Assembly (NCBI RefSeq): GCF_044324785.1
Contig: NZ_CP172127.1
DNA length: 64,000 bases
Source: Escherichia coli
GTDB lineage: Bacteria > Pseudomonadota > Gammaproteobacteria > Enterobacterales > Enterobacteriaceae
Reading direction: 5' to 3' (one strand)
Both the position numbers and the translations under genes were made by a program. Positions 2,696 to 57,579 of this stretch are shown in pieces; position 1 is the stretch's first letter; every line of letters begins with the position of its first letter. Under the pieces are notes generated by a model. It saw only the letters and a list, made by a program, of their open reading frames with translations, searched no databases and was not told the DNA's origin.

Positions 2696-3540
2696 TCTTT
2701 CTGCGAATTGAGATGACGCCACTGGCTGGGCGTCATCCCGGTTTCCCGGGTAAACACCACCGAAAAATAGTTACTATCTTCAAAGCCACATTCGGTTGAA
2801 ATATCACTGATTAACAGGCGGCTATGCTGGAGAAGATATTGCGCATGACACACTCTGACCTGCCGCAGATATTGATTGATGGTCATGCCAGTCTGCTGGC
2901 GAAATTGCTGACGCAAAACGCGCTCACTGCACGATGCCTCATCACAAAATTTATCCAGCGCAAAGGGACTTTTCAGGCTGGCCGCCAGCCGGGTAATCAG
3001 CTTATCCAGCAATGTTTCGCTGGATGTTGGCGGCAACGAATCACTGGTGTAACGATGGCGATTCAGCAACATCACCAACTGCCCGAACAGCAACTCTGCC
3101 ATTTCGTTAGCAAACGGCACATGCTGACTACTTTCATGCTCAAGCTGACCGATAACCTGCCGCGCCTGCGCCATCCCAACGCTACCTAAGCGCCAGTGTG
3201 GTTGCCCTGCGCTGGCGCTAAATCCCGGAATCGCCCCCTGCCAGTCAAGATTCAGCTTCAGCCGCTCCGGGCAATAAATAATATTCTGCAAAACCAGATC
3301 GTTAACGGAAGCGTAGGAGTGTTTATCGTCAGCATGAATGTAAAAGAGATCGCCACGGGTAATGCGATAAGGGCGATCGTTGAGTACATGCAGACCATTA
3401 CCGCGCCAGACAATTACCAGCTCACAAAAATCATGTGTATGTTCGGCAAAGACATCTTGCGGATAACGGTCAGCCACAGCGACTGCCTGCTGATCGCTGG
3501 CAAAAAAATCATCTTTGAGAAGTTTTAACTGATGCGCCAC
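2692..3540 (-). CDS. rhaR: AraC-family transcriptional activator RhaR
   Basis: ORF 2692..3651; C-terminal AraC HTH; start placed at the GTG (plus-strand cac at 3538..3540) giving [13 protein letters not shown]..., the 282-aa form; longer in-frame starts are possible. Confidence 0.85.
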
Positions 3541-3613
3541 CGTGGCTACCTCGGCCAGAGAACGAAGTTGATTATTCGCAATATGGCGTACAAATACGTT
3601 GAGAAGATTCGCG

Positions 3614-4450
3614 TTATTGCAGAAAGCCATCCCGTCCCTGGCGAATATCACGCGGTGACCAGTTAAACTCTCGGCGAAAAAGCGTCGAAAAGTGGTTACT
3701 GTCGCTAAATCCGCAGCGATAGGCGATGTCAGTAACGCTGGCTTCGCTGTGGCGTAGTAGATGTCGGGCTTTCATCAGTCGCAGGCGGTTCAGGTAACGC
3801 TGAGGCGTCAGTCCCGTTTTCTGCTTAAGCTGCCGATGTAGCGTACGCAGCGAAAGAGAAAATTGATCCGCCACGGCATCCCAATTTACCTCATCGGCAA
3901 AATGGTCCTCCAGCCAGGCCAGAAGCAAGTTGAGACGTGACGCGCTGTTTTCCAGGTTCTCCTGCAAACTGCTTTTACGCAGCAAGAGCAGTAATTGCAT
4001 AAATAAGATCTCGCGACTGGCGGTCGAGGGTAAATCATTTTCCTCTTCCTGCTGTTCCATCTGTGCAACCAGCTGTCGCACCTGCTGCAACACGCTGTGG
4101 TTAACGCGCCAGTGGGAAGGATACTGTCCGTCCTGCTCTTGTGGCAGCAACTGATTCAGCCCGGCGAGAAACTGAAATCGATCCGGCGAGCGATACAGCA
4201 CATTAGTCAGACACAGATTATCGGTATGTTCATACAGATGCCGATCATGATCGCGTACGAAACAGACCGTCCCACCGGTGATGGTATAGGGCTGCCCATT
4301 AAACACATGAATACCCGTGCCATGTTCGACAATCACAATTTCATGAAAATCATGATGATGTTCAGGAAAATCCGCCTGCGGGAGCCGGGGTTCTATCGCC
4401 ACGGACGCGTTACCAGACGGAAAAAAATCCACACTATGTAATACGGTCAT
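3614..4450 (-). CDS. rhaS: AraC-family transcriptional activator RhaS
   Basis: 278-aa [47 protein letters not shown]..., cupin plus AraC HTH; divergent from rhaB. Confidence 0.93.
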
Positions 4451-7464
<3,014 letters not shown>

Positions 7465-12582: not shown

Positions 12583-14889
12583 CTACATTCCATAACGTTC
12601 AGAAATAGCAGCATGCTTCTCTTCATTCGCCCCGGCTTCTTTGGCAAGACGCCACCAGCACAACGGATGTTCCCAGTCAGCGGTCAATTCGTGCAAGGTC
12701 TTATCGATATCACCTTTAGAAACTGAACGCGGCGCGCTGATAACAAAGTAGAACGCGGGCAGCGGCTGTGCATCTTCTCCCTGCTGGCTGTCCGTTAACG
12801 TATAGTCCTCGTTACTGTTGCTCCAGTAGTACCAGTTTCGTTCACGGAGCGCCTCACGGAAGACATTAAACTGTTCTTCCCCAGGCATGACACCTTCACA
12901 GAACCAGGACTCGCCGTACTCAGTCGGGATAATGGTTTGCAGGCAGGCATAAAGTGGCGTGAAATTCTTCCGTTCTTCCTCATCCTCTGGTTGGGTGTTC
13001 AACATTTCTGCATCGAATACCACAACTTCATCAACATGTTGCGGATAATCGGTCCGGTAAGTTGGCTCAATGATCCTTGCTGTTACCGGCCCAATACGTT
13101 GAGCATAGTAATAGCGGTATTCATAATTTTCCCGGAAGCGAATGTTTAGCAGCCCCCATTTTTCGTCGATAAAACCTTCACCTTCCGTAAGTTCGATTTC
13201 CAGTTCAGCAGCAATAGCACGAACCAAATCCCATTGTTGCAGGATGCTGGCGGTCGCCATGATATCCCACTGGAGATTTCGAATATCTTCTTCACGGCTA
13301 ATCATCAGTTGCTGCAATTGTTGTAAATAATCCAGCTGTCGATCCCAGGCTTCCTGTTTTTGTGCTGCCCAGGAGCACATGCGATAAACGCCAACCCATT
13401 CACGCCCTTTTTCGTTTTGCAGCAACTGTTGCCCAATCGACTCCAGTTCACTCCAGTCTTCCTGTTGGTTGATCACTCGCGCACGGAACCACAAGGCCAT
13501 ATGTAGCAGCCCCGCCTGTTCATACTGCTTCGCCAGGTGCTCAATGGTTTGCAGATCGTCACGGTGGAGCAATAAATCCAACAGATCGAAGCAGAGATTG
13601 TTATCTTCCTGGAGGTGGCTTTCGACGTAGCGTTGCAGAAGTTCAATCGACTCATCAATCGCATTACAGGCATTTAACGCATTGACCAGTTTGCCCAGCA
13701 ATTCCGCATCATCTGGCGCGTTCAGGTAAGCGCGGCGGAATGTTTCGACGTCTTTTTCTGGATCTGGCTGCGTTTCTTCGTCGCTATTTTCAGGTACTTC
13801 TACAACCGGACGAGCAAGCAACTCCGCCTCTTTGGCGGCGATTTTTTCACTCAGTTCGAGAAACTCGCGATCAACCCCCAGTAACGCGCGTAATTTTGGC
13901 ATGTGTCGCTGGGCCAGTTTCATCGCTATTTTGGCAACCCAGACGGATTCACGCTCCAGCGCCAGGGTGATTTGCAGTTTTGCCAGATTAACCACTTTGC
14001 GATGCGCCCCGGCCTGTGAACGTTGCTCCAGCATTTTCTGGATGATGCGCGCCAGTTGCCAGTTGTTTCTTTGTGGATGACGGGGAAGTAACACAGTAAT
14101 GATTTTCAGCCATGACCCCCATGAATGGGGAGTCAGATCTGACCAACGCGGTAATTCCTCCCAGACTTCTTCGTCCTGCCCGCATAACGCCATGATGTAC
14201 AGTTTTTTGAGGTGATTACTAATGCGGTCGCGGCCCCAGTAATCATTGGCTTCTGTCAGCTCATCAATCAGTATGCGTGCTTCATCATAACGCTGAAGTT
14301 CAATCAGAATATCGGCACGAGTATAAAGTAATGCATCAATATCATCTTCCCCGGCTGCTTTAACTGCGTCGATTTGTCGATCCAGATAAGCCAGTGCCTC
14401 CTCTATTCTTTTGGAATCTATCAGTGCACTGGCATATTCAGTGGACAAACACTGAAAACAGCTCCAGGTCGGATCAATCCGCGCGATGGTTTCTTCACAT
14501 ACCGCCATGCGTTCATTCGCCCAGCCAGGTGCATCAATATTTTCGTAGCAGGCGGATAAATCCTGGGTAACGCAGATAGATTGTGGGCAATCTTTTGTCT
14601 CTTCCCGGTGCGCTTTTTCAAACAGCGCCACCACGTCTGGCAGTACTTTTTCGCCTTCTTCGCGGTTAGTGAGACGATGGCGCATTTCCCAATGACCAAT
14701 AAAAATCTCCAGCCACGGATTTTTTGCCACCTGGGTAAGTGCTTTTACTTCAGGTAACAGCGAATCGCACTTTTCCATTTGCAGGTGCATAACGCCTTCC
14801 GAATAATCATCGATAAGTTGCGGAATATACTCCTGCCCGGCATCGCGTAACTCCTTAGTATATTTGTGATACCACTCCCATATATCCAT
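12583..14889 (-). CDS. Large acidic helical-repeat protein of unknown function, operon partner of the GHKL ATPase
   Basis: 768-aa ORF, start 1 bp downstream of the preceding gene's stop (translational coupling); Trp/Glu/Leu-rich, predicted alpha-helical (TPR/HEAT-like by eye); no catalytic motif recognised. Confidence 0.6.
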   Translation of the reverse strand: MDIWEWYHKYTKELRDAGQEYIPQLIDDYSEGVMHLQMEKCDSLLPEVKALTQVAKNPWLEIFIGHWEMRHRLTNREEGEKVLPDVVALFEKAHREETKDCPQSICVTQDLSACYENIDAPGWANERMAVCEETIARIDPTWSCFQCLSTEYASALIDSKRIEEALAYLDRQIDAVKAAGEDDIDALLYTRADILIELQRYDEARILIDELTEANDYWGRDRISNHLKKLYIMALCGQDEEVWEELPRWSDLTPHSWGSWLKIITVLLPRHPQRNNWQLARIIQKMLEQRSQAGAHRKVVNLAKLQITLALERESVWVAKIAMKLAQRHMPKLRALLGVDREFLELSEKIAAKEAELLARPVVEVPENSDEETQPDPEKDVETFRRAYLNAPDDAELLGKLVNALNACNAIDESIELLQRYVESHLQEDNNLCFDLLDLLLHRDDLQTIEHLAKQYEQAGLLHMALWFRARVINQQEDWSELESIGQQLLQNEKGREWVGVYRMCSWAAQKQEAWDRQLDYLQQLQQLMISREEDIRNLQWDIMATASILQQWDLVRAIAAELEIELTEGEGFIDEKWGLLNIRFRENYEYRYYYAQRIGPVTARIIEPTYRTDYPQHVDEVVVFDAEMLNTQPEDEEERKNFTPLYACLQTIIPTEYGESWFCEGVMPGEEQFNVFREALRERNWYYWSNSNEDYTLTDSQQGEDAQPLPAFYFVISAPRSVSKGDIDKTLHELTADWEHPLCWWRLAKEAGANEEKHAAISERYGM

Positions 14890-14890
14890 T

Positions 14891-16726
14891 TTATTTTCCT
14901 TGATTAATTAAGACAGGAATAACCTGAGTAAAATCTTCCAGTGCCTGATGTAAATCCCACTGCTGTTCTTTATTACCGCTGGAGCACAGAATCACTTTCA
15001 GCGATTTTAATAACCGTAATGCTGCCGCTGGCTGTTGATGGTGTTGTAATGCCGTCACCAGTTGCATGACACAGGGGTTATTAAGGTTGATATAGAGACT
15101 TGAAGTTTTAGATTTTTGGATTTGCGAGGTAAATTGCCGCGCCAGCATTAATGCAGCGGTACTGATGCGTTTATCTGCGTCATCCTGTTCGAGAATTTGT
15201 TTTAATTCTGCTTCGCGGTCTGGCGTGACCACGAGCGGTAAAACCGCTGGTTCGAAGCGGGAGATAATTAATTGCTCGCCATCACAGAGATGCTCTTCCA
15301 GATATGCAACCTGCTCTTCGGGTAATTCTGCCAGGCTGAACAACTGCTCATTACCCGTTTGCGTACCGACTTCGATAATCCGGCAGTGATATAACAGCGC
15401 CCAACGACGTAAAAATGGCACCACCGCATAACGATCGCCACGGGCTACGGGCCGTTGCAGAATATGAAACAACATCTCTTCAAAACCGCCGTCGCGGCTT
15501 AACAGAATATGAATACTGTTATTAACGCGTAAATCCTTCGCCAGCAGCGCACCTTTTGACGTTGGCACCTGCAGGCGGTCTTTGAGTAAATCAAACAGAC
15601 GATCATCACACAAGGCCGCACCCAGCAACGCTTCGTTGTGGCGCATTAATACACGCCGCCAGATTTCTGGCTGGTTTTGTGCGAGATCGGACAAACCTGA
15701 AATCAGCGCCTCTTTTAGCGCCTCCTGTACCGCAACCCAGGTTTCATCCCGCTGGAGATCTTCCCGGCTCGCCGTCGGCGTCAGTTTCGATGACTCAATC
15801 ACGCCGCCAATAAATCCGGCCCAGGGCGGTAACAACTCACGCGCTTCATCATCCAGTAACATACCGCGCAAAAACAACGACAGGTTGCGGTTATCGCTGG
15901 TGCCGTAGGTTGCGCCATCCTGAATCCATAAAATCCCGACCGCATCGCTCATCCCCGCAGGTACTACCGGAATGGTGCAAATCGGTTCGAAGGAGGATTC
16001 AAACTGGGCGGCAAAGGCGAGATTTTTACGCTGCACCAGCGCGCGGTGCATGGTTACGCCTTCGGGGGCAACTTCACGCCACGGTGGTTGAAGTTTATTT
16101 ACCGGCTCGCCGGCATCGCCGACATAGACCGGTTCGTGCAGCAATATGCAGTAGCGGGAAAGAACGCGGTTCAGCAAATTGTTACTCGCCAGATGGCTAT
16201 ACTCTTCTTTGAGCGTCAGAATCACCTGCGTTCCCGTTTCCGAGGACTCATACGGCGTAACGGTATATTTTTGCCCGTCAGTAGAGTGGTATTTCCAGCG
16301 CTGATCCGGCGTTTGCCAGGATGTGGTCAACACCGTAACCTCTTTTGCCAGCACAAAGGCCGACAAAAAACCGAGGCCGAACATACCAATTAAACCGGTG
16401 TTGTCATCCTGCTGGCGCAACATTCGGGTATAACCCACGCCCACTGTCGCCAGGAAGCCGTGAATTTCACTTTCTGTCAGTCCCGCACCGGTATCGGTAA
16501 TGGTGATGATGGACTTCGCCACGTCTGCCACCACACGAATCGCGTTATCCTTTGGCGCATCGGGCTGCTCAATCCTGCGGCGAACGATCGCATCATGGCC
16601 GTTCTGCACCAGCTCGCGCACGGCAACCACGGGAGTGGAGTAAAGATGCTTACTAAGCACCTCAATTAAACCGTTTAAATTAACTTCTGTAGAATATGAA
16701 CTGCCAGGTAACTGTAATGTACTCAT
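14891..16726 (-). CDS. Hsp90/MORC-type GHKL ATPase paralog (HtpG-like, not housekeeping htpG)
   Basis: 611-aa ORF with Bergerat-fold motifs in order: ELVQNGHDA (motif I, cf. Hsp90 ELISNASDA), DTGAGLT (motif II, cf. DNGIGMT), GMFGLGFLSAF (G-loop, cf. GQFGVGFYSAF); AT-rich promoter region 16727..17037. Confidence 0.7.
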   Translation of the reverse strand: MSTLQLPGSSYSTEVNLNGLIEVLSKHLYSTPVVAVRELVQNGHDAIVRRRIEQPDAPKDNAIRVVADVAKSIITITDTGAGLTESEIHGFLATVGVGYTRMLRQQDDNTGLIGMFGLGFLSAFVLAKEVTVLTTSWQTPDQRWKYHSTDGQKYTVTPYESSETGTQVILTLKEEYSHLASNNLLNRVLSRYCILLHEPVYVGDAGEPVNKLQPPWREVAPEGVTMHRALVQRKNLAFAAQFESSFEPICTIPVVPAGMSDAVGILWIQDGATYGTSDNRNLSLFLRGMLLDDEARELLPPWAGFIGGVIESSKLTPTASREDLQRDETWVAVQEALKEALISGLSDLAQNQPEIWRRVLMRHNEALLGAALCDDRLFDLLKDRLQVPTSKGALLAKDLRVNNSIHILLSRDGGFEEMLFHILQRPVARGDRYAVVPFLRRWALLYHCRIIEVGTQTGNEQLFSLAELPEEQVAYLEEHLCDGEQLIISRFEPAVLPLVVTPDREAELKQILEQDDADKRISTAALMLARQFTSQIQKSKTSSLYINLNNPCVMQLVTALQHHQQPAAALRLLKSLKVILCSSGNKEQQWDLHQALEDFTQVIPVLINQGK

Positions 16727-17036: not shown

Positions 17037-17037
17037 T

Positions 17038-17874
17038 TTAATTATGAATCAAACGCTGCGGATGGGTATAAACCGTTGCCCGACCCAGTTTACAAAAGCC
17101 CACCAGCGTCAAATTACAGCGTTCAGCCACTTCTACAGCAAGCGTGGTCGCGGCAGACACCGCAAACAAAATCTCTACGCCACACATCGCCGACTTTTGC
17201 ACCATTTCATAACTGGCACGGCTGGAAACCAGCACCGCACCTTGCTGCCAGCTTTCCCCTTCTTGTGACCGGCGGCCTAACAGTTTGTCCAGCGCCACAT
17301 GGCGACCCACGTCTTCATGCCCGCCGACCAGTTCGCCAGATGGCAACATCCATGCAGCGGCGTGAGTACAACCGGTCAGTTGCCCCACTGGCTGGAAATC
17401 ATTGAGATGACGTAATGCATCATCCAGTTTGTTGAGATCAAACGTCTGGGTGAACGGCAGCGGCTGCACCGGTTTTCCGATATCGTTAAGCTGTTCCACG
17501 CCGCACACGCCGCAGCCTGTACGCCCGGCCAGCGCCCGGCGACGTTCCTTCAACCCCATAAAGCGGCGGCTGGAAAGCTCAATTTGAACTTCAAGACCAT
17601 TACAGGAAGGAGCGACATCCATGCCGAAGATATCGCGCGGACTTTCTATTATCCCCTCGGAAAGCGAAAAACCGAGCGCAAAGTACTCAAGGTCTTTGGG
17701 CGACGCCATCATCACCACATGCGAAATGCCGTTGTAGACCAGCGCAACGGGAACTTCTTCCGCGACCTCATCTAACCGTGGGTGTTGTAAATCATCACGC
17801 CGCCATAACTCAATTTGACGAACACCTGTGATATTTGTCACATTTTCGATTTCTTTTTGCTGTGTTTTTTTCAC
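17038..17874 (-). CDS. fdhD: Formate dehydrogenase accessory sulfurtransferase
   Basis: 278-aa [62 protein letters not shown]...; divergent from fdoG. Confidence 0.92.
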
Positions 17875-18067
17875 TTTCTCTTAACCAGATAAGAACACAC
17901 ACACCAACATTATGGTATTCTGTTACAAACCCTTCCTGGATGGAGGGAAATTGAGCCAATTCTGGACCTTTGCGGCCCCTTCCGCAAAGAAAAATAACTC
18001 CCACTCCCTGCACACGCAGCAAGCGAATGTAAATGGGACGTGACAATGTCGAAACAAGGAGCAATCC

Positions 18068-21000
18068 ATGCAGGTCAGCAGAAGGCAGTTCTTTAAGATC
18101 TGCGCTGGCGGTATGGCAGGCACCACGGCAGCGGCACTGGGTTTTGCACCCAGCGTAGCACTCGCGGAAACTCGGCAGTATAAACTGCTGCGCACCCGCG
18201 AAACCCGTAATACCTGCACCTATTGTTCCGTAGGCTGTGGGCTGTTGATGTACAGCCTCGGTGACGGAGCAAAAAACGCCAAAGCATCTATCTTCCATAT
18301 CGAAGGCGATCCGGATCACCCGGTCAACCGCGGTGCACTTTGTCCGAAAGGCGCTGGCCTGGTGGATTTCATCCACTCCGAAAGCCGTCTGAAGTTTCCG
18401 GAATACCGTGCGCCAGGTTCTGATAAATGGCAGCAAATCAGTTGGGAAGAGGCGTTTGATCGCATCGCCAAACTGATGAAAGAAGACCGCGATGCTAACT
18501 ACATTGCGCAAAACGCCGAAGGCGTGACTGTTAACCGCTGGCTCTCCACCGGGATGCTGTGTGCTTCCGCGTCGAGTAACGAAACCGGCTATTTAACGCA
18601 AAAATTCTCCCGCGCGCTGGGTATGCTCGCGGTCGACAACCAGGCGCGTGTCTGACACGGACCAACGGTAGCAAGTCTTGCTCCAACATTTGGTCGCGGT
18701 GCGATGACCAACCACTGGGTCGACATCAAGAACGCCAACCTCGTCGTGGTGATGGGCGGTAACGCCGCTGAAGCTCACCCGGTCGGGTTCCGCTGGGCGA
18801 TGGAAGCCAAAATTCACAATGGCGCGAAGCTGATTGTGATCGATCCTCGCTTTACGCGTACGGCTGCGGTGGCTGACTACTATGCCCCTATTCGTTCCGG
18901 TACTGACATTGCTTTCCTGTCAGGCGTATTGCTGTACCTGCTGAACAATGAAAAATTCAACCGCGAATATACCGAAGCCTATACCAACGCCAGCCTTATC
19001 GTGCGTGAGGATTACGGCTTTGAAGATGGCCTGTTCACCGGCTACGACGCGGAAAAACGCAAGTACGATAAATCCTCCTGGACTTACGAACTGGACGAAA
19101 ACGGCTTCGCCAAACGCGATACCACGCTGCAACATCCGCGCTGCGTGTGGAACTTGCTGAAACAGCACGTTTCCCGCTACACGCCAGATGTGGTTGAAAA
19201 CATCTGTGGTACGCCAAAAGACGCGTTCCTGAAAGTCTGCGAATACATCGCCGAAACCAGTGCTCACGATAAAACTGCTTCGTTCCTGTATGCCCTCGGC
19301 TGGACGCAACACTCTGTTGGTGCGCAAAACATTCGTACGATGGCGATGATCCAGTTGCTGCTCGGCAATATGGGGATGGCAGGCGGCGGCGTTAACGCCC
19401 TGCGTGGTCACTCCAATATTCAGGGGCTGACGGACCTGGGGCTACTGTCGCAGAGCCTGCCGGGTTACATGACGCTGCCGAGCGAGAAGCAGACCGATCT
19501 GCAAACCTACCTTACCGCCAACACGCCAAAACCGCTGCTGGAAGGCCAGGTAAACTACTGGGGCAACTACCCGAAATTCTTCGTCTCCATGATGAAGGCC
19601 TTCTTTGGTGATAAAGCGACGGCGGAAAATAGCTGGGGCTTTGACTGGTTGCCGAAGTGGGATAAAGGCTACGACGTCCTGCAATACTTCGAGATGATGA
19701 AAGAAGGCAAGGTCAATGGCTATATCTGCCAGGGCTTTAACCCTGTTGCCTCATTCCCGAACAAAAACAAAGTGATCGGTTGTCTGTCGAAACTGAAGTT
19801 CCTCGTCACCATCGACCCGCTGAACACTGAAACCTCTAACTTCTGGCAGAACCACGGTGAGCTGAACGAAGTTGACTCGTCGAAGATCCAGACCGAAGTG
19901 TTCCGTCTGCCATCGACCTGCTTCGCGGAAGAGAACGGTTCTATCGTTAACTCCGGTCGCTGGTTGCAGTGGCACTGGAAAGGTGCGGACGCCCCGGGGA
20001 TTGCGCTGACAGATGGCGAGATCCTCTCCGGTATCTTCCTGCGCTTGCGCAAGATGTATGCCGAACAGGGTGGCGCAAACCCGGATCAGGTGCTGAACAT
20101 GACCTGGAACTACGCCATTCCGCATGAGCCGAAGTCGGAAGAAGTAGCGATGGAGAGCAACGGTAAGGCGCTGGCCGATATTACCGATCCGGCAACCGGT
20201 GCGGTTATCGTCAAGAAAGGCCAACAACTTAGCTCGTTCGCCCAACTGCGCGATGACGGTACGACCTCCTGTGGCTGCTGGATTTTCGCCGGTAGCTGGA
20301 CGCCAGAAGGTAACCAGATGGCGCGCCGTGATAACGCCGATCCGTCTGGCCTCGGTAACACGCTGGGCTGGGCATGGGCATGGCCGCTTAACCGCCGCAT
20401 TCTGTATAACCGCGCCTCCGCAGATCCGCAGGGTAACCCGTGGGATCCGAAGCGTCAGTTGCTGAAATGGGACGGCACCAAATGGACCGGCTGGGATATT
20501 CCGGACTACAGCGCAGCGCCTCCGGGCAGTGGCGTTGGGCCGTTTATCATGCAGCAGGAAGGCATGGGGCGTCTGTTTGCCCTCGATAAGATGGCGGAAG
20601 GTCCGTTCCCGGAACACTACGAGCCGTTTGAAACGCCGCTGGGAACTAACCCGCTGCATCCAAACGTTATCTCGAACCCGGCTGCACGTATCTTTAAAGA
20701 CGACGCCGAAGCGTTGGGTAAAGCCGATAAGTTCCCGTATGTCGGAACCACCTATCGTCTGACCGAGCACTTCCACTACTGGACCAAACACGCGCTGTTG
20801 AACGCGATTTTGCAACCAGAGCAGTTTGTGGAAATCGGGGAGTCGCTGGCGAATAAACTTGGCATTGCCCAGGGCGATACCGTGAAAGTCTCCTCCAACC
20901 GTGGCTATATCAAAGCCAAAGCGGTGGTGACCAAACGTATTCGCACGCTGAAAGCGAACGGCAAAGATATCGATACCATCGGTATTCCGATTCACTGGGG

Positions 21001-21127
21001 CTATGAAGGTGTTGCGAAAAAAGGCTTTATTGCCAATACGTTAACGCCATTCGTTGGTGATGCGAACACGCAGACGCCAGAGTTTAAATCCTTCCTCGTG
21101 AATGTGGAAAAGGTGGATACCCAATAG
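18068..21127 (+). CDS. fdoG: Formate dehydrogenase-O major subunit; selenoprotein with in-frame UGA at 18653..18655
   Basis: Two same-frame ORFs (18068..18655 and 18704..21127) separated only by TGA; Tat signal MQVSRRQFFKICAGGMAGTTAAALGFAPSVALA; conserved ...AVDNQARV-U-HGPTVASLAPTFGRGAMTNHW context. Confidence 0.93.
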
Positions 21128-36450: not shown

Positions 36451-37326
36451 ATGGACTTTTTTACATTATTTACGCCGGACGGGGCCATGGTGGAAACAAG
36501 CGTGGTATGTATCGTTATCGCGTTAATGTTTCTTTATACCTTTGTGGGGATATGCGCGGGATTTGGCGGTGGTTTAACCACTATGCCGCTCGTCACGTTA
36601 ATGCTCCCCGTAAAAATGGCAACTCCGCTCTCGGTGATTGTCGGCACCGCAACCGCCTTGTACGCCACCTGGCTGTCACGTAAAGAAACGGATTGGCGAT
36701 CGGCAATGGTACTGATTATTTTCTCGTTTCTGGGAATACCCGTCGGTTTATATGCGCTGTCGTATTTACCCGACCATTTTATGAAAGTGGGCTTAGGCGG
36801 ATTCCTTATCCTTTACTCGTTTTACAGCATGTTTATTCCTCGCCTGCCGATTTATGACCGTAACTGGATCGCCGCACCTATCGGCGCAGTAGCTGGTGCA
36901 TTAGGTGCGGCGTTCTCAACCAACGGACCGCCGATGGTTATCTACGGTATGCTGCGTAACTTAGGCCCGGCGGCATTTCGCGGCACTTTGAACGCTTTCT
37001 TCACCGCAAACAACATCGCGGTGATCGGCGGGCTGGCAACCAGCGGAATTTTGACTGTCTCTATCTTTAAACTGGTGTTGTTTTGTATTCCCACCATGAT
37101 CCTCGGTTCACTGGTTGGACAATATGTGCATAAACGCATTTCGGTCAAAGTGTTCCGTGTGATGGTCTTTTTATTGCTGATTGCCTCCGGTTCTATGTTG
37201 ATAAAAGGCGCGCTGGGAATTCCCGCCGCTGCCGCACTTCTGCCTCCGTTTACCTTGTTAGTTATACTGCAACTGGCATTCGGTAAAAAAGTGGCGGCAA
37301 TCCGCCGGGCTGAAGAAAGTAAATAA
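36451..37326 (+). CDS. TauE/SafE-family (DUF81) anion exporter
   Basis: 291-aa ORF, about 8 TM segments in two halves, each with a Gly-rich motif (ICAGFGGGLTTMP and GAVAGALGAAFSTNGPPMVIYG) typical of TauE/SafE sulfite/sulfonate exporters; lies between yihR and yihQ. Confidence 0.7.
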   Translation: MDFFTLFTPDGAMVETSVVCIVIALMFLYTFVGICAGFGGGLTTMPLVTLMLPVKMATPLSVIVGTATALYATWLSRKETDWRSAMVLIIFSFLGIPVGLYALSYLPDHFMKVGLGGFLILYSFYSMFIPRLPIYDRNWIAAPIGAVAGALGAAFSTNGPPMVIYGMLRNLGPAAFRGTLNAFFTANNIAVIGGLATSGILTVSIFKLVLFCIPTMILGSLVGQYVHKRISVKVFRVMVFLLLIASGSMLIKGALGIPAAAALLPPFTLLVILQLAFGKKVAAIRRAEESK

Positions 37327-37431: not shown

Positions 37432-39468
37432 ATGGATACGCCACGCCCACAGTTACCAGATTTTAAATTTCATCATAATAACGACCGTTTTACCCTACGT
37501 TTTCAGGGCCGTCTTATTTTATCCCATAGTAAAGATAATCCTTGTTTATCGATTGGCTCAGGTATTGCGGATATTGATATGTTCCGTGGCAATTTCAGCA
37601 TTAAAGATAAATTGCAGGAGAAGATTGCGCTTACCGACGCTACCGTCAGCCAGTCACCGGATGGCTGGTTAATCCATTTCAGCCGTGGTTCTGACATTAG
37701 CGCCACGCTGAATATCTCTGCCGACGATCAGGGCCGTTTATTGCTGGAACTACAAAACGACAACCATCACCACAACCGCATCTGGCTGCGCCTTGCCGCT
37801 CAACCAGAGGACCATATCTACGGCTGCGGTGAACAATTCTCCTACTTTGATCTGCGCGGCAAACCGTTCCCGCTATGGACCAGTGAACAAGGCGTTGGTC
37901 GCAACAAGCAAACCTATGTCACCTGGCAGGCCGACTGCAAAGAGAACGCGGGCGGCGACTATTACTGGACTTTCTTCCCGCAGCCTACGTTTGTCAGCAC
38001 GCAGAAGTATTACTGCCATGTTGATAACAGTTGCTACATGAACTTCGACTTTAGTGCCCCGGATTACCACGAACTGGCGCTGTGGGAAGACAAAGCAACG
38101 CTGCGTTTTGAATGTGCTGATACATACATCTCCCTGCTGGAAAAATTAACTGCCCTGCTGGGACGCCAGCCAGAACTGCCCGACTGGATTTATGACGGGG
38201 TAACGCTCGGCATTCAGGGCGGGACGGAAGTGTGTCAGAAGAAACTGGACACCATGCGTAACGCGGGCGTGAAGGTTAACGGCATCTGGGCGCAGGACTG
38301 GTCCGGGATCCGTATGACCTCTTTTGGCAAACGCGTGATGTGGAACTGGAAGTGGAACAGCGAAAACTATCCGCAACTGGACTCACGTATTAAGCAGTGG
38401 AACAAAGAGGGCGTTCAGTTCCTTGCCTATATCAACCCGTATGTCGCCAGTGATAAAGACCTCTGTGCCGAAGCAGCAAAACACGGCTATCTGGCAAAAG
38501 ATGCCTGTGGCGGTGACTATCTGGTGGAATTCGGCGAGTTCTACGGCGGCGTTGTCGATCTCACTAATCCGGAAGCCTACGCCTGGTTCAAGGAAGTGAT
38601 CAAAAAGAACATGATTGAACTCGGCTGCGGCGGCTGGATGGCTGACTTCGGCGAGTATCTGCCCACCGACACTTACCTGCATAACGGCGTTAGCGCCGAA
38701 ATTATGCATAACGCCTGGCCCGCACTGTGGGCGAAGTGTAACTACGAAGCCCTTGAAGAAACGGGCAAGCTCGGCGAGATCCTTTTCTTTATGCGCGCCG
38801 GTTCTACCGGTAGCCAGAAATACTCCACCATGATGTGGGCGGGCGACCAGAACGTCGACTGGAGTCTGGACGATGGCCTGGCGTCGGTCGTCCCGGCGGC
38901 GCTGTCGCTGGCAATGACCGGACATGGCCTGCATCACAGTGACATTGGCGGTTATACCACCCTGTTTGAGATGAAGCGCAGCAAAGAGCTGCTGCTGCGC
39001 TGGTGCGATTTCAGCGCCTTCACGCCGATGATGCGCACCCACGAAGGCAACCGCCCCGGTGACAACTGGCAGTTTGACGGCGACGCGGAAACTATCGCCC
39101 ATTTTGCCCGTATGACCACCGTCTTCACCACCCTGAAACCTTACCTGAAAGAGGCCGTCGCGCTGAATGCGAAATCCGGCCTGCCAGTTATGCGCCCGCT
39201 GTTCCTGCATTACGAAGACGACGCGCAGACCTACACCCTGAAATATCAGTACCTGTTAGGCCGCGACATTCTGGTCGCTCCGGTGCATGAAGAAGGCCGT
39301 AGCGACTGGACGCTCTATCTGCCGGAGGATAACTGGGTCCATGCCTGGACGGGAGAAACCTTCCACGGGGGAGAAATAACCGTTGAAGCGCCCATCGGCA
39401 AGCCGCCGGTCTTTTATCGCGCCGATAGCGAATGGGCGGCACTGTTCGCGTCGTTAAAAAGCATCTAA
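37432..39468 (+). CDS. yihQ: Sulfoquinovosidase (GH31 alpha-glycosidase)
   Basis: ORF 37372..39468; start set at MDTPRPQLPDFKFHHNNDRFTL (678 aa). Confidence 0.9.
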   Translation: MDTPRPQLPDFKFHHNNDRFTLRFQGRLILSHSKDNPCLSIGSGIADIDMFRGNFSIKDKLQEKIALTDATVSQSPDGWLIHFSRGSDISATLNISADDQGRLLLELQNDNHHHNRIWLRLAAQPEDHIYGCGEQFSYFDLRGKPFPLWTSEQGVGRNKQTYVTWQADCKENAGGDYYWTFFPQPTFVSTQKYYCHVDNSCYMNFDFSAPDYHELALWEDKATLRFECADTYISLLEKLTALLGRQPELPDWIYDGVTLGIQGGTEVCQKKLDTMRNAGVKVNGIWAQDWSGIRMTSFGKRVMWNWKWNSENYPQLDSRIKQWNKEGVQFLAYINPYVASDKDLCAEAAKHGYLAKDACGGDYLVEFGEFYGGVVDLTNPEAYAWFKEVIKKNMIELGCGGWMADFGEYLPTDTYLHNGVSAEIMHNAWPALWAKCNYEALEETGKLGEILFFMRAGSTGSQKYSTMMWAGDQNVDWSLDDGLASVVPAALSLAMTGHGLHHSDIGGYTTLFEMKRSKELLLRWCDFSAFTPMMRTHEGNRPGDNWQFDGDAETIAHFARMTTVFTTLKPYLKEAVALNAKSGLPVMRPLFLHYEDDAQTYTLKYQYLLGRDILVAPVHEEGRSDWTLYLPEDNWVHAWTGETFHGGEITVEAPIGKPPVFYRADSEWAALFASLKSI

Positions 39469-39513
39469 TCACGTCCGCCCGTGGGGAAACTCACGGGCAA
39501 AGGGAGAACAACG

Positions 39514-40899
39514 ATGAGTCACATCACAACGGAAGATCCGGCTACTTTACGTCTGCCCTTTAAAGAGAAACTCTCTTACGGTATCGGCGATCTGGCCTCT
39601 AACATCCTGCTGGATATCGGCACGCTTTATCTTTTGAAGTTTTATACCGACGTTCTGGGGCTGCCCGGCACCTATGGCGGCATTATCTTTTTGATTTCAA
39701 AGTTCTTTACCGCCTTTACCGATATGGGTACCGGCATTATGTTGGATTCCCGACGCAAGATCGGTCCAAAAGGCAAATTCCGCCCTTTTATTCTGTATGC
39801 ATCATTCCCGGTCACCCTGTTGGCGATCGCCAACTTTATCGGCACACCGTTTGATGTCACCGGTAAAACGGTGATGGCCACCATCCTGTTTATGCTTTAC
39901 GGACTGTTTTTCAGCATGATGAACTGCTCCTACGGCGCAATGGTCCCCGCTATTACTAAAAACCCCAACGAACGTGCATCGCTGGCAGCATGGCGTCAGG
40001 GTGGCGCTACATTGGGCCTGCTGCTGTGTACGGTGGGATTCGTGCCGGTTATGAATCTTATCGAAGGTAATCAGCAACTTGGCTATATCTTCGCCGCCAC
40101 GCTGTTTTCACTGTTCGGCCTGCTGTTTATGTGGATCTGCTACTCGGGCGTGAAAGAGCGTTATGTCGAAACCCAACCTGCAAATCCGGCGCAAAAGCCT
40201 GGCCTGCTGCAGTCTTTCCGCGCGATTGCTGGTAACCGCCCACTATTCATTCTGTGTATTGCCAACCTCTGCACTTTAGGGGCGTTTAACGTCAAGCTCG
40301 CCATTCAGGTCTATTACACGCAGTACGTGCTTAACGATCCCATCCTGTTGTCGTATATGGGATTTTTCAGCATGGGCTGTATTTTCATCGGCGTGTTCCT
40401 GATGCCTGGTGCAGTCAGACGTTTTGGTAAGAAGAAGGTCTATATCGGCGGCCTGCTGATTTGGGTGCTGGGCGATCTGCTCAACTATTTCTTTGGCGGC
40501 GGCTCGGTCAGCTTTGTGGCGTTCTCCTGCCTGGCGTTCTTCGGCTCAGCGTTTGTTAACAGCCTGAACTGGGCGCTGGTTTCTGACACCGTCGAGTACG
40601 GCGAGTGGCGCACCGGTGTGCGTTCGGAAGGTACGGTCTACACCGGCTTCACTTTCTTTCGCAAAGTGTCTCAGGCGCTGGCTGGTTTCTTCCCCGGCTG
40701 GATGCTGACGCAAATCGGCTATGTGCCAAACGTGGCGCAGGCTGACCATACCATCGAAGGTTTACGCCAGCTGATCTTCATCTACCCAAGCGCACTGGCG
40801 GTAGTCACCATTGTGGCGATGGGTTGCTTCTACAGTCTGAACGAGAAAATGTACGTCCGCATTGTTGAAGAAATAGAAGCCCGTAAACGCACGGCATAA
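39514..40899 (+). CDS. yihP: GPH-family sugar:cation symporter
   Basis: ORF 39481..40899; start uncertain (MGKLTG... at 39481 or MSHITTEDP... at 39514); multi-TM; paralogous to yihO. Confidence 0.85.
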   Translation: MSHITTEDPATLRLPFKEKLSYGIGDLASNILLDIGTLYLLKFYTDVLGLPGTYGGIIFLISKFFTAFTDMGTGIMLDSRRKIGPKGKFRPFILYASFPVTLLAIANFIGTPFDVTGKTVMATILFMLYGLFFSMMNCSYGAMVPAITKNPNERASLAAWRQGGATLGLLLCTVGFVPVMNLIEGNQQLGYIFAATLFSLFGLLFMWICYSGVKERYVETQPANPAQKPGLLQSFRAIAGNRPLFILCIANLCTLGAFNVKLAIQVYYTQYVLNDPILLSYMGFFSMGCIFIGVFLMPGAVRRFGKKKVYIGGLLIWVLGDLLNYFFGGGSVSFVAFSCLAFFGSAFVNSLNWALVSDTVEYGEWRTGVRSEGTVYTGFTFFRKVSQALAGFFPGWMLTQIGYVPNVAQADHTIEGLRQLIFIYPSALAVVTIVAMGCFYSLNEKMYVRIVEEIEARKRTA

Positions 40900-42202
40900 A
40901 TAATAAACAACGCCCTGCGGGGCGTTATAAGGAGTGATTATGTCTGACCATAATCCACTGACATTAAGACTGAATCTGCGGGAAAAAATCGCCTATGGCA
41001 TGGGCGACGTCGGTTCGAATTTAATGCTTAGCATCGGCACTCTGTATCTCCTCAAATTTTATACCGATGAATTAGGGATGCCTGCTTACTATGGCGGGAT
41101 TATCTTTCTGGTAGCGAAGTTTTTTACCGCGTTTACCGATATGCTCACCGGATTTTTACTCGACTCGCGGAAAAATATTGGGCCTAAAGGCAAATTTCGT
41201 CCCTTTATTTTATATGCAGCGGTTCCGGCGGCGTTAATTGCAACGCTCCAGTTTATCGCCACCACTTTTAGTTTGCCGGTTAAAACGACGATTGCCACCG
41301 CGCTGTTTATGATGTTTGGACTTTCATACAGTCTGATGAACTGCTCGTATGGCGCGATGATCCCGGCAATTACCAAAAACCCCAATGAGCGCGCGCAGCT
41401 TGCGGCTTACCGCCAGGGTGGTGCAACCATAGGGCTATTGATTTGTACCGTGGCGTTTATTCCGTTGCAGTCGCTTTTTTCTGACTCCACCGTCGGTTAT
41501 GCCTGTGCGGCACTTATGTTCTCCATTGGCGGCTTTATTTTTATGATGCTGTGCTACAGAGGCGTCAAAGAGCATTATGTGGACACAACGCCAACCGGAC
41601 ATAAAGCCAGTATTCTCAAATCATTTTGCGCGATATTTCGGAATCCGCCATTGCTGGTTTTGTGCATTGCTAACCTGTGTACCCTGGCGGCATTTAATAT
41701 CAAACTGGCGATTCAGGTCTATTACACCCAGTATGTGCTGAATGATATTAACTTATTGTCGTGGATGGGATTCTTCAGTATGGGATGCATCCTCATCGGC
41801 GTATTGCTGGTGCCATTAAGCGTAAAATGTTTTGGTAAAAAACAGGTTTATTTAGCTGGCATGGTGCTGTGGGCGGTGGGGGATATCCTGAATTATTTCT
41901 GGGGAAGTAACTCTTTCACTTTCGTCATGTTCTCTTGTATCGCCTTTTTTGGCACGGCCTTTGTAAACAGCCTGAACTGGGCACTGGTGCCAGATACCGT
42001 AGATTACGGTGAATGGAAAACCGGTATTCGTGCCGAAGGTTCTGTTTATACCGGTTATACCTTCTTTCGTAAAATTTCTGCCGCACTTGCTGGCTTCTTG
42101 CCAGGCATTATGCTGACGCAAATCGGTTATATTCCCAACATCGCGCAGGTGATGCTGCCAACTTACTGATTTAGTGTATGATGGTGTTTTTGAGGTGCTC
42201 CA

Positions 42203-42478
42203 GTGGCTTCTGTTTCTATCAGCTGTCCCTCCTGTTCAGCTACTGACGGGGTGGTGCGTAACGGCAAAAGCACCGCCGGACATCAGCGCTATCTCTGCTC
42301 TCACTGCCGTAAAACATGGCAACTGCAGTTCACTTACACCGCTTCTCAACCCGGTACGCACCAGAAAATCATTGATATGGCCATGAATGGCGTTGGATGC
42401 CGGGCAACTGCCCGCATTATGGGCGTTGGCCTCAACACGATTTTACGTCACTTAAAAAACTCAGGCCGCAGTCGGTAA
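42203..42478 (+). CDS. insA: IS1 protein InsA
   Basis: 91-aa [46 protein letters not shown]... Confidence 0.95.
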
Positions 42479-42900
42479 CCTCGCGCATACAGCCGGGCAG
42501 TGACGTCATCGTCTGCGCGGAAATGGACGAACAGTGGGGCTATGTCGGGGCTAAATCGCGCCAGCGCTGGCTGTTTTACGCGTATGACAGTCTCCGGAAG
42601 ACGGTTGTTGCGCACGTATTCGGTGAACGCACTATGGCGACGCTGGGGCGTCTTATGAGCCTGCTGTCACCCTTTGACGTGGTGATATGGATGACGGATG
42701 GCTGGCCGCTGTATGAATCCCGCCTGAAGGGAAAGCTGCACGTAATCAGCAAGCGATATACGCAGCGAATTGAGCGGCATAACCTGAATCTGAGGCAGCA
42801 CCTGGCACGGCTGGGACGGAAGTCGCTGTCGTTTTCAAAATCGGTGGAGCTGCATGACAAAGTCATCGGGCATTATCTGAACATAAAACACTATCAATAA
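42397..42900 (+). CDS. insB: IS1 transposase InsB frame (expressed as InsAB' fusion by -1 frameshift)
   Basis: 167-aa ORF overlapping the insA 3' end in the -1 frame. Confidence 0.9.
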
Positions 42901-43186
42901 GTTGGAGTCATTACCCATCGCGCAAAGTGATGCGACATTACAGGGTTTGCGTCAGCTCATTTTTATCTGGCCTTGTGCACTGGCAATTATTGCTGCATTG
43001 ACGATGGGATTCTTTTACACACTCAATGAAAAACGGTTTGCGTTGATTATTGAGGAAATCAACCAACGCAAAAATAAAGAGATGGCGACAGAAGAAAAAA
43101 CGGCTTCCGTAACGTTATAAATGTCAATAGCCGCTATTTCCATCCTGGTGGGTGGCGGCCTCCCTACGTTTAAAAATGGACTTATT

Positions 43187-43879
43187 ATGAAAAATATTAA
43201 TGCAATAATTTTATTATCTTCTCTGACCTCTGCCTCAGTATTCGCTGGCGCATACGTCGAAAACAGGGAGGCATATAATCTCGCCTCCGATCAGGGCGAG
43301 GTTATGCTACGTGTGGGTTATAACTTCGATATGGGCGCGGGTATTATGTTAACCAATACCTACACCTTTCAGCGAGAAGATGAACTAAAACATGGATATA
43401 ACGAAATTGAAGGTTGGTATCCTTTATTTAAACCAACCGATAAATTAACCATCCAGCCCGGTGGCTTAATTAATGACAAGAGTATCGGTTCGGGTGGTGC
43501 CGTTTATCTGGATGTTAACTACAAATTTACTCCGTGGTTTAACCTGACGGTGCGTAATCGCTATAACCATAATAATTACAGCTCTACAGATTTGAACGGC
43601 GAATTGGATAATAACGACACCTATGAAGTTGGCACCTACTGGAACTTTAAAATAACAGAAAAATTTTCCTATACATTTGAACCACATTACTTCATGCGAG
43701 TGAATGACTTTAATAGTAGCAACGGGAAAGATCATCATTGGGAAATCACTAACACCTTCCGTTACCGTATTAATGAACACTGGCTTCCTTATTTCGAATT
43801 GCGCTGGTTAGACCGCAACGTCGAACCGTACCACCGCGAGCAAAACCAGATCCGTATCGGGACGAAGTATTTCTTCTGA
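43187..43879 (+). CDS. ompL: KdgM/OmpL-family small outer-membrane porin
   Basis: ORF 43121..43879; start set at MKNINAIILLSSLTSASVFA (signal peptide, 230 aa); C-terminal ...IRIGTKYFF. Confidence 0.88.
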   Translation: MKNINAIILLSSLTSASVFAGAYVENREAYNLASDQGEVMLRVGYNFDMGAGIMLTNTYTFQREDELKHGYNEIEGWYPLFKPTDKLTIQPGGLINDKSIGSGGAVYLDVNYKFTPWFNLTVRNRYNHNNYSSTDLNGELDNNDTYEVGTYWNFKITEKFSYTFEPHYFMRVNDFNSSNGKDHHWEITNTFRYRINEHWLPYFELRWLDRNVEPYHREQNQIRIGTKYFF

Positions 43880-49074: not shown

Positions 49075-49225
49075 AACTTTGCCTCAGGCATTAGAAATAG
49101 CGCGTTATTGTACACGGATTAATCGCACTACAAAACAGGATCACAAACATCCTCCGCAAACAAGTATTGCAGAGTCCCTTTGTGATCGCTTTCACGGAGC
49201 ATAAAAAGGGTTATCCAAAGGTCAT

Positions 49226-49363
49226 TGCACCAATATGGTGCTTAATGTTTCCATTGAAGCACTATATTGGTGCAACATTCACATCATGGTGCAGCCCTTT
49301 TGCACGATGTTAAGCATGATAACGCCTTTTAGGGGCAATTTAAAAGTTGGCACAGTTTTCGCT
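49226..49363 (+). promoter_or_regulatory. glnA control region: NtrC-binding palindromes and sigma-54 promoter
   Basis: NtrC-type sites tgcaccaatatggtgct (49226..49242) and gcactatattggtgcaa (49259..49275); sigma-54 -24/-12 element TGGCACagttTTCGCT at 49348..49363. Confidence 0.8.
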
Positions 49364-55984: not shown

Positions 55985-56049
55985 AATGGTTCGTCTTTTA
56001 GCCGTTTTATTCAGTATAGATTTGCGGCGGAATCTAACAGAAAGCAAGC

Positions 56050-56296
56050 AAAGAAAAAAGGCGACAGATTACTCTGTCGCCTTTTTTCCTGACTCATAAC
56101 CCTTAACGGGTCTTACAATCCTTGCAGGCCGCCAACACACCCTGTTTTTCCATTAGCCGGAACAATCCGTGTTGATTCCATTTCCGTTTAATTACGTCTC
56201 CGGACGTTTGTCTTCCTGACAATCCTCTGTCTTCGCCTCCTGGCGCTCCTGACCCTCATCCTGAGTCATTGTTCCTGTTAGCGTCCTCGCTCTATG
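56050..56296 (-). ncRNA. csrC: CsrC small RNA (CsrA-sequestering)
   Basis: Minus-strand sequence starts ATAGAGCGAGGACGCTAACAGGAACAATGACTCAGGATGAGGGTCAGGAGCGCCAGGAGGCG... with many GGA motifs and ends in terminator ggcgacagagtaatctgtcgcc + T-run; lies in the yihI-engB intergenic region; ends approximate. Confidence 0.85.
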
Positions 56297-57323: not shown

Positions 57324-57432
57324 TAAAAAACGCCCCAGTCATTACTGACTGGGGCGGCTAAAATATTCAGCCAAATCCGATTACGTGAAGTAAAAGGTCT
57401 GAAAGATAGAACATCTTACCTCTGTACCCTAC
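57324..57432 (-). ncRNA. spf: Spot 42 small RNA
   Basis: Minus strand reads GTAGGGTACAGAGGTAAGATGTTCTATCTTTCAGACCTTTTACTTCACGTAATCGGATTTGGCTGAATATTTTAGCCGCCCCAGTCAGTAATGACTGGGGCGTTTTTTA (109 nt), including its intrinsic terminator. Confidence 0.95.
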
Positions 57433-57579
57433 GCGACTAACTTTACTCTTTTTTGTTCAGTTCAGAAAGCACTTTTTGTAATTTTTTTTCAGTTGTTGCA
57501 TAGGAATTTCTAATAGCCATCACAAAACGTGACAGCTTATGTTGCTTACTTACGAAAAAAGGGCATGTTCAGGTGAATC

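Follow-up and report, generated by a model that had tools for sequence, protein, structure and literature searches.

We describe a copy of the insertion sequence IS1 that interrupts yihO, a gene of the sulfoquinovose (yih) cluster, in a 64,000-nucleotide stretch of Escherichia coli DNA (RefSeq assembly GCF_044324785.1, contig NZ_CP172127.1). This stretch is called the window below, and all positions refer to it. The insertion is real, simple and recent, and we hold this with great confidence. It divides the reading frame in codon 403 of 467 and leaves a truncated product of YihO, the proposed importer of sulfoquinovose (SQ). The evidence consists of the structure of the element and its ends, the duplicated target site, comparison with genomes that carry the uninterrupted site, and the identity of the flanking DNA to that of close relatives. 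All genome counts refer to a set of 5,426 complete RefSeq E. coli genomes. The element and the two parts of the interrupted gene are arranged as follows.

40940-42147 (+): 5' part of yihO, codons 1-402 and two bases of codon 403, within an open reading frame (ORF) at 40934-42169
42139-42147: left copy of the target-site duplication, CATCGCGCA (direct read and repeat search)
42148-42915 (+): IS1 (IS1A type), 768 bp, transposase genes co-oriented with yihO
42148-42170 (+): left inverted repeat (IRL), GGTGATGCTGCCAACTTACTGAT, 23 nt (repeat search)
42155-42182 (+): promoter-like site CTGCCA-16-TATGAT, overlapping IRL (promoter scan)
42203-42478 (+): insA, 91 aa, GTG start, intact (ORF list and translation)
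42454-42460 (+): A6C programmed -1 frameshift motif, joining insA to insB'
42457-42900 (+): insB' frame, slip site through stop codon, within a 167-aa ORF open from 42397
42893-42915 (+): right inverted repeat (IRR), ATCAATAAGTTGGAGTCATTACC, 23 nt (repeat search)
42916-42924: right copy of the target-site duplication, CATCGCGCA (direct read and repeat search)
42925-43120 (+): 3' remnant of yihO, third base of codon 403 to the stop, now cut off from its start

The element is complete, as had been claimed in the original prediction, which was made from the sequence alone: all 768 bp could be read, insA and insB' are intact, and the copy is 100% identical over its whole length to many chromosomal and plasmid copies in RefSeq E. 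coli sequences that are annotated as IS1-like element IS1A family. The arms of IRL and IRR are 78% complementary over 23 nt. A -1 shift at A6C yields a 232-aa InsAB' fusion without stops, and the RefSeq annotation of identical copies likewise records a programmed frameshift. The fusion matches the NCBIfam model NF033558 (IS1 family transposase) with 243.2 bits against a cutoff of 100 (E 2e-72) and also matches NF050000, a model of the N-terminal zinc-binding domain. The promoter-like site that overlaps IRL lies at what is presumably the position of the insA promoter. In length, inverted repeats, ORF layout, transposase profile, duplication and near-identity, that is, in every testable feature of membership, the element agrees with IS1. 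Judging from its intact ends and frames, this copy would be capable of transposition. Copies covering at least 80% of the query are held by 4,950 of the complete genomes, and the window contains a single IS1 end of this type in a search allowing up to 3 mismatches.

The duplications produced by IS1 at its target are 8-9 bp long, typically 9 bp. Here, the two copies of CATCGCGCA form a perfect direct repeat with a spacing of 777 nt, and both abut the IS1 termini exactly. The original prediction had described such a repeat, and re-inspection found both the duplication and the two IS1 ends at the positions listed above. In the window as a whole the 9-mer is found 5 times, where 1.6 would be expected; the word count itself carries no weight, which lies instead in the exact abutment at both ends, since the chance of abutment at fixed positions is about 4^-9.

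Alignment to an uninterrupted yihO allele, a check proposed with the prediction, gave a consistent result. The empty site in strain N3 and in GCA_044703925.1 contains CATCGCGCA once. When N3 is compared with the window, two alignment blocks meet at a single CATCGCGCA, and a reconstructed empty site of 400 bp is 100% identical to N3. Both flanks are thus collinear with IS-free genomes in which the target is single-copy, which upholds the claim of one simple transposition rather than an old rearrangement. The event itself was almost certainly the transposition of a single active-type IS1A element into the chromosomal yihO of an E. coli strain. According to established IS1 biology, the InsAB' transposase, produced by the -1 frameshift at A6C, would have made a 9-bp staggered cut at CATCGCGCA, and gap repair would then have duplicated the 9-mer on both sides of IS1.

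The yihO frame enters IS1 and stops at TGA 42167-42169, 6 codons into IRL. The truncated product has 409 residues, namely 403 residues of YihO followed by VMLPTY, where the G of IRL preserves Q403. In silico removal of IS1 together with one copy of the repeat restores a full-length YihO of 467 aa that exactly matches an allele found on 241 public contigs (e.g. AXO82562.1), so that the frame is indeed continuous across the element, as originally stated. At the DNA level, yihO is 98.8% identical to K-12 over the 400-bp site. The restored protein matches TIGR00792 (glycoside-pentoside-hexuronide:cation symporter, GPH) with 527.9 bits, against a cutoff of 231, and aligns over residues 11-439 to 4M64, a structure of the melibiose permease MelB, with an E value of 3e-40. 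In this alignment, YihO residues 404-439 lie opposite MelB 403-438, and the aligned YihO sequence includes GYIPNIAQSDATLQGLRQLIFIWPCALAII. In a hydropathy scan, the last hydrophobic segment comprises residues 408-437, which are downstream of the break. The alignment and the scan place the insertion in the loop before the last helix: the predicted product stops after eleven helices, as helix XII, the C-terminal tail and the remainder of loop 11-12 are left to the 3' remnant. The gene disrupted is one of two GPH transporter genes of the cluster, as the original prediction held; both YihO and YihP match TIGR00792. By family profile, position in the cluster and identity to annotated products alike, the gene agrees with yihO.

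The age of the insertion can be judged from the flanking DNA. After removal of IS1 and one repeat copy, the window is identical to two IS-free assemblies without any gaps, over 21,404 of 21,404 positions in GCA_044703925.1 and 12,187 of 12,187 in GCA_018769445.1. Both assemblies carry an intact yihO encoding exactly the restored allele. The insertion postdates the split from IS-free relatives whose flanks do not differ from the window over 21.4 kb; together with the identity of the IS1 to widespread copies, this agrees with the earlier view that it is recent. The substitution rate of E. coli is assumed to be a few 10^-7 per site per year. With this rate, and with not a single difference accumulated along 21.4 kb in two diverging lineages, the insertion would be at most roughly one to two centuries old, which is a rough bound, and may be far younger. 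Shigella or a heavily IS-laden genome was rejected as the source of the DNA: the window has only one IS1 end, it is collinear with N3 at 99.2-99.7% identity over most of the length and at 98.5% for 17037-21115, and it is identical to other E. coli assemblies.

The allele is also rare. The truncated fusion is found on 2 contigs, compared with 241 for the intact allele, and the exact yihO::IS1 insertion is present in 0 of the complete genomes, of which 3,878 contain the uninterrupted site. Among the complete genomes without the uninterrupted site, most are missing this portion of the cluster, in agreement with a published "short cassette" (PMC12608037). In our IS1 junction searches each orientation was queried separately; 18 + 18 complete genomes have an IS1 near the site, in all cases at other positions.

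Two further cases use exactly the same nucleotide as the window. One of them is a partial YihO ending in IAQVMT, found among the members of a 90% cluster and derived from GCA_036033365.1, whose contig ends in CCCAACATCGCGCA followed by GGTAATGACT. The junction, CATCGCGCA joined to GGTAATGACT, corresponds to an IS1 with IRR first, that is, at the same nucleotide in the opposite orientation, in a yihO allele that is 95.6% identical to that of the window. The other case was found by prediction: a 409-aa fusion was derived for a K-12-type allele joined to IS1 at IRL, and exactly this protein is present in Logan run ERR1622284. There, the 5' part of yihO is identical to K-12 W3110 at 1208 of 1208 positions and the junction is identical to that of the window, while between the same 5' part and the window there are 26 differences, of which two fall within 25 bp of the junction. 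To judge from these differences, the ERR1622284 insertion is independent of that in the window, because import by recombination would need a crossover inside the last 16 bp. The same yihO nucleotide has been used independently in at least two other lineages, which suggests that it is a preferred IS1 target.

The sequence next to the target offers a possible reason for such a preference. The DNA 3' of the duplicated 9-mer, A-AGTGATGC (42925-42933), shares 7 consecutive bases with the IRL tip GGTGATGC (42148-42155), and because of this resemblance BLAST ran the flank alignment 8 bp into IS1. A resemblance of targets to the ends of IS1 was noted in early work on IS1 hot spots. It is conceivable, although we regard it as doubtful, that CATCGCGCA, at yihO codons 400-403, is a sequence-specific IS1 hot spot that has been used repeatedly, in both orientations, across unrelated E. 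coli lineages, possibly because the adjacent AGTGATGC mimics the IS1 end GGTGATGC. What favors a preferred site is that even a very small search in a very large collection turned up these exact-nucleotide coincidences, and the case as a whole may be called moderate. Only these coincidences in different alleles were admitted as evidence for a hot spot. Truncated forms in the 90% cluster are biased to lengths similar to that of the query, and their clustering near the site was not used as evidence for a hot region. A metagenome scan for the junction CCCAACATCGCGCAGGTRATG gave two matches, both due to chance, in unrelated high-GC DNA without similarity to the window. If the hot spot is true, sulfoquinovose uptake would have in yihO an "off switch" that recurs naturally and can be reversed.

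Other IS1 insertions are found around the site. In yihO and ompL we mapped 13 insertions in complete genomes and one in a draft assembly; they belong to several subtypes, occur in both orientations, and lie in yihO, in the yihO-ompL spacer and in ompL (40935-43761). The nearby ones include an IS1 located 27 bp upstream of the site in GCA_001286445.1, in the opposite orientation, and one located 25 bp downstream in GN03590, which belongs to a 93%-identical subtype and has an 8-bp duplication. Within 500 bp on either side of the site, there are 8 independent IS1 events in about 15 genomes, and all 8 are in the AT-richer downstream half, where the GC content is 34-49%, compared with 50% for the window.

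The surrounding cluster has the gene order csqR(-), yihV(-), yihU, yihT, yihS, yihR, a TauE/SafE-family gene, yihQ, yihP, yihO::IS1, ompL, yihN(-), yihM(-), yihL(-), with all genes not marked (-) on the + strand. Genes were assigned by NCBIfam matches and by the RefSeq annotation of the collinear N3 locus, with W3110 used for the position of yihO, which lies between yihP and ompL as it does in the annotation of N3 and of K-12 W3110. The two neighbors of yihO are as follows.

39514-40899 (+): yihP, 461 aa, second GPH transporter, intact (TIGR00792, 536 bits)
43187-43879 (+): ompL porin, 230 aa, intact (NF007434, 472 bits; residues 23-252 of the ORF 43121-43879)

The same 461-aa gene is called for yihP in the 100%-identical locus of GCA_044703925.1, and the other genes of the cluster are intact in that they are identical to the same assembly, where full-length genes are called. 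The strain is predicted to have lost SQ uptake and growth on SQ with its other yih genes intact. Two side observations concern the cluster. The window contains a gene for a TauE/SafE-family membrane protein of 291 aa (36451-37326, +) between yihR and yihQ, which is annotated in N3 as "sulfite exporter family protein" and matches Pfam PF01925 on the identical GCA_044703925.1 locus; because K-12 W3110 has only a 198-bp gap there, the gene represents an extra putative transporter of this version of the cluster. In addition, csqR (3484-4268) and yihU (5366-6261) of N3 are annotated as frameshifted pseudogenes, while the window has open, full-length counterparts (30483-31292 and 32366-33262); the frameshifts of N3 may be genuine or due to sequencing errors.

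The insertion may also affect ompL, which starts 66 bp past yihO. IS1 insertions are classically polar, and for this reason transcription of ompL from upstream is probably reduced. A terminator scan found no terminator-like site on the + strand between yihO and ompL. SQ has been reported to induce ompL along with yihO and yihP (PMC12608037).

Several alternative explanations have to be weighed. The IS1 might be left over from a more extensive rearrangement mediated by IS1, for instance a deletion of neighboring DNA, an inversion between two copies or the decay of a composite transposon. Events of this kind are known for IS1, and strain PEC41 provides an example from the same region, where the IS1 in ompL adjoins a deletion that extends to yihN and has no matching flanks. 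In the window, however, the perfect 9-bp repeat adjoins both ends, about 10 kb on each side is collinear with the IS-free GCA_044703925.1 and shows zero differences from it, N3 is collinear from 21233 to the end of the window, and a further IS1 end is absent from the whole stretch, so that we give this explanation practically no credence. It is also very improbable that the insertion is an assembly artefact, in which a copy of the repeat was misplaced, or that it was acquired during laboratory culture of the isolate. Such an origin would be in line with the absence of the insertion from all of the complete genomes and with the lack of a database record for the ORF at the right junction (72 aa, TTG start in IRR), which was not found by exact look-up. 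However, the left junction occurs in an independent Logan assembly, ERR13187251: the short-read contig ERR13187251_196 encodes exactly the 409-aa fusion and matches window positions 37940-42176 with 0 mismatches over 4,237 bp. It ends 29 bp into IRL, and thus breaks inside IS1 as short-read assemblies typically do. A misplaced repeat would not produce a perfect 9-bp target duplication, and although acquisition in culture is conceivable, the contig is common to three samples.

The remaining alternatives accept the insertion and concern its effect and its cause. A truncated YihO with eleven of its twelve helices might still transport, or YihP or another carrier might substitute, in which case there would be no SQ phenotype; YihP is intact and 65% identical to YihO (bioRxiv 10.1101/2021.11.10.468170), and the cluster contains the extra TauE/SafE-family protein. 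Yet a K-12 ΔyihO mutant does not grow on SQ, either aerobically or by fermentation, although yihP is present (PMC6278857). The missing helix XII, moreover, belongs to the conserved GPH/MFS core aligned in MelB. Loss of a whole helix usually leads to misfolding of MFS carriers, and retained uptake seems improbable. Selection is a further candidate: the insertion could have been selected for the loss of SQ uptake or for altered ompL expression, as part of a convergent decay of the pathway in host-associated E. coli. The hits at the same nucleotide in three lineages and the IS1 insertions mapped in yihO and ompL across strains, at least 15 in number, could be read in this way, and a short yih cassette without yihO-S is widespread and enriched in pathogens (PMC12608037). 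Selection would, however, accept any disruptive site, whereas exact reuse of one nucleotide points to a target preference; the density of IS1 in the region is not clearly elevated, and the allele is rare. We therefore consider selection unlikely as well.

Other points weigh against the reading favored here, in particular against its more extended parts. For the hot spot, the region shows no clear excess of IS1: there are about 15 genomes per kb, and a uniform distribution of the about 10.9 chromosomal IS1 copies of a ~5-Mb genome predicts about 12. The proposal depends on two extra events with one junction visible in each, and GCA_036033365.1 shows only 10 nt of IS1. The coincidences were judged without a proper null model. 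Four predicted fusions are not on record, namely the K-12 allele with IRR first, the PEC41-type allele in both orientations and the window allele with IRR first; the look-up requires an exact sequence, and its negatives carry little weight. As for function, loss of YihO activity is likely because a whole helix is lost and the K-12 ΔyihO mutant fails on SQ, but it is from these two points that it is deduced, and the transport activity of YihO has never been shown biochemically (bioRxiv 10.1101/2021.11.10.468170). According to the same study, ΔyihO weakens the multidrug resistance of one strain that is highly quinolone-resistant. The polarity on ompL is assumed from the classical behavior of IS1, and ompL may have a promoter of its own.

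Elsewhere in the window, a two-gene island (12583-16726, -), which the close relative N3 lacks, is located between yiiG and fdhD. Its genes encode a 768-aa protein with weak TPR matches and a 611-aa HSP90-family/GHKL-type ATPase (NF010683, 285 bits, below the cutoff). The island is present in 246 of the complete genomes, e.g. SMS-3-5, and a PADLOC search of it gave no convincing match, with only a weak match to TmtA. A 637-aa ORF (25270-27183, -) is located between yiiE/yiiF and fabY in a segment that is present in 974 of the complete genomes. It has no Pfam or NCBIfam match, and the 100%-identical DNA in N3 is annotated as "transposase" and a partial hypothetical protein. No tRNA genes were found in the window, in which Rfam identified the following elements.

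18650-18708 (+): SECIS element of the formate dehydrogenase alpha-subunit gene
49156-49263 (-): ES222 small RNA
56042-56295 (-): CsrC
57324-57442 (-): Spot 42

Insertions of IS1 have been known for decades, as have the 9-bp duplications that they cause, their polar effects and their preference for certain targets. The element described here is like other simple IS1 (IS1A/IS1R) insertions of E. coli and Shigella, whether chromosomal or plasmid-borne, in its length of 768 bp, its 23-nt imperfect repeats beginning GGTGATG/GGTAATG, its insA-A6C-insB' organization and its 9-bp duplication; it shows no difference in itself, and only its location in yihO codon 403 is specific to the lineage. The other IS1 insertions of the yihO-ompL region (GN03590, PSS-08-1, HUM3355, EC22, HeN100, SW071610, the EC-JS426 group, fS25a and G47-1) belong to the same family, affect the same gene pair and have 8- or 9-bp duplications. 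They differ in position, since they lie between a point 27 bp upstream of the site in the window and one about 0.8 kb downstream of it, or at the 5' end of yihO, and several of them are different subtypes with 93-99% identity, in both orientations. Only ERR1622284 and GCA_036033365.1 have the exact nucleotide in common with the window. A literature search for yihO together with IS1 returned nothing relevant. The finding is of an ordinary, already known kind, with a minor curiosity in that one nucleotide has been used repeatedly.

Two other forms of YihO loss can be compared with the one in the window. In the K-12 ΔyihO mutants (Keio-type; Denger et al. 2014, Burrichter et al. 2018), YihO function is removed from an otherwise intact sulfo-EMP cluster, as is predicted here. 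In contrast to these mutants, the gene in the window is truncated after residue 403 rather than deleted, an IS1 stands between the yihO remnant and ompL, and the cluster contains the TauE/SafE gene in addition. The short yih cassette (yihTUVW), found in Nissle 1917 and many pathogenic strains, is a further case in which E. coli has lost the initial part of sulfoquinovose catabolism in nature (PMC12608037). That cassette is without ompL and yihOPQRS and is phylogenetically widespread, whereas in the window a long cassette is interrupted by an IS in one gene only, potentially in a reversible manner.

For annotation, the strain can be described as yihO::IS1, predicted to be unable to import or grow on sulfoquinovose despite an otherwise complete sulfo-EMP cluster, which would be relevant if the strain serves in work on gut sulfoquinovose metabolism. 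From the general biology of insertion sequences, precise excision could restore yihO, given the perfect 9-bp repeats. The reuse of one nucleotide in three lineages provides a natural example of IS1 target preference, and possibly a substrate for defining IS1 hot spots.

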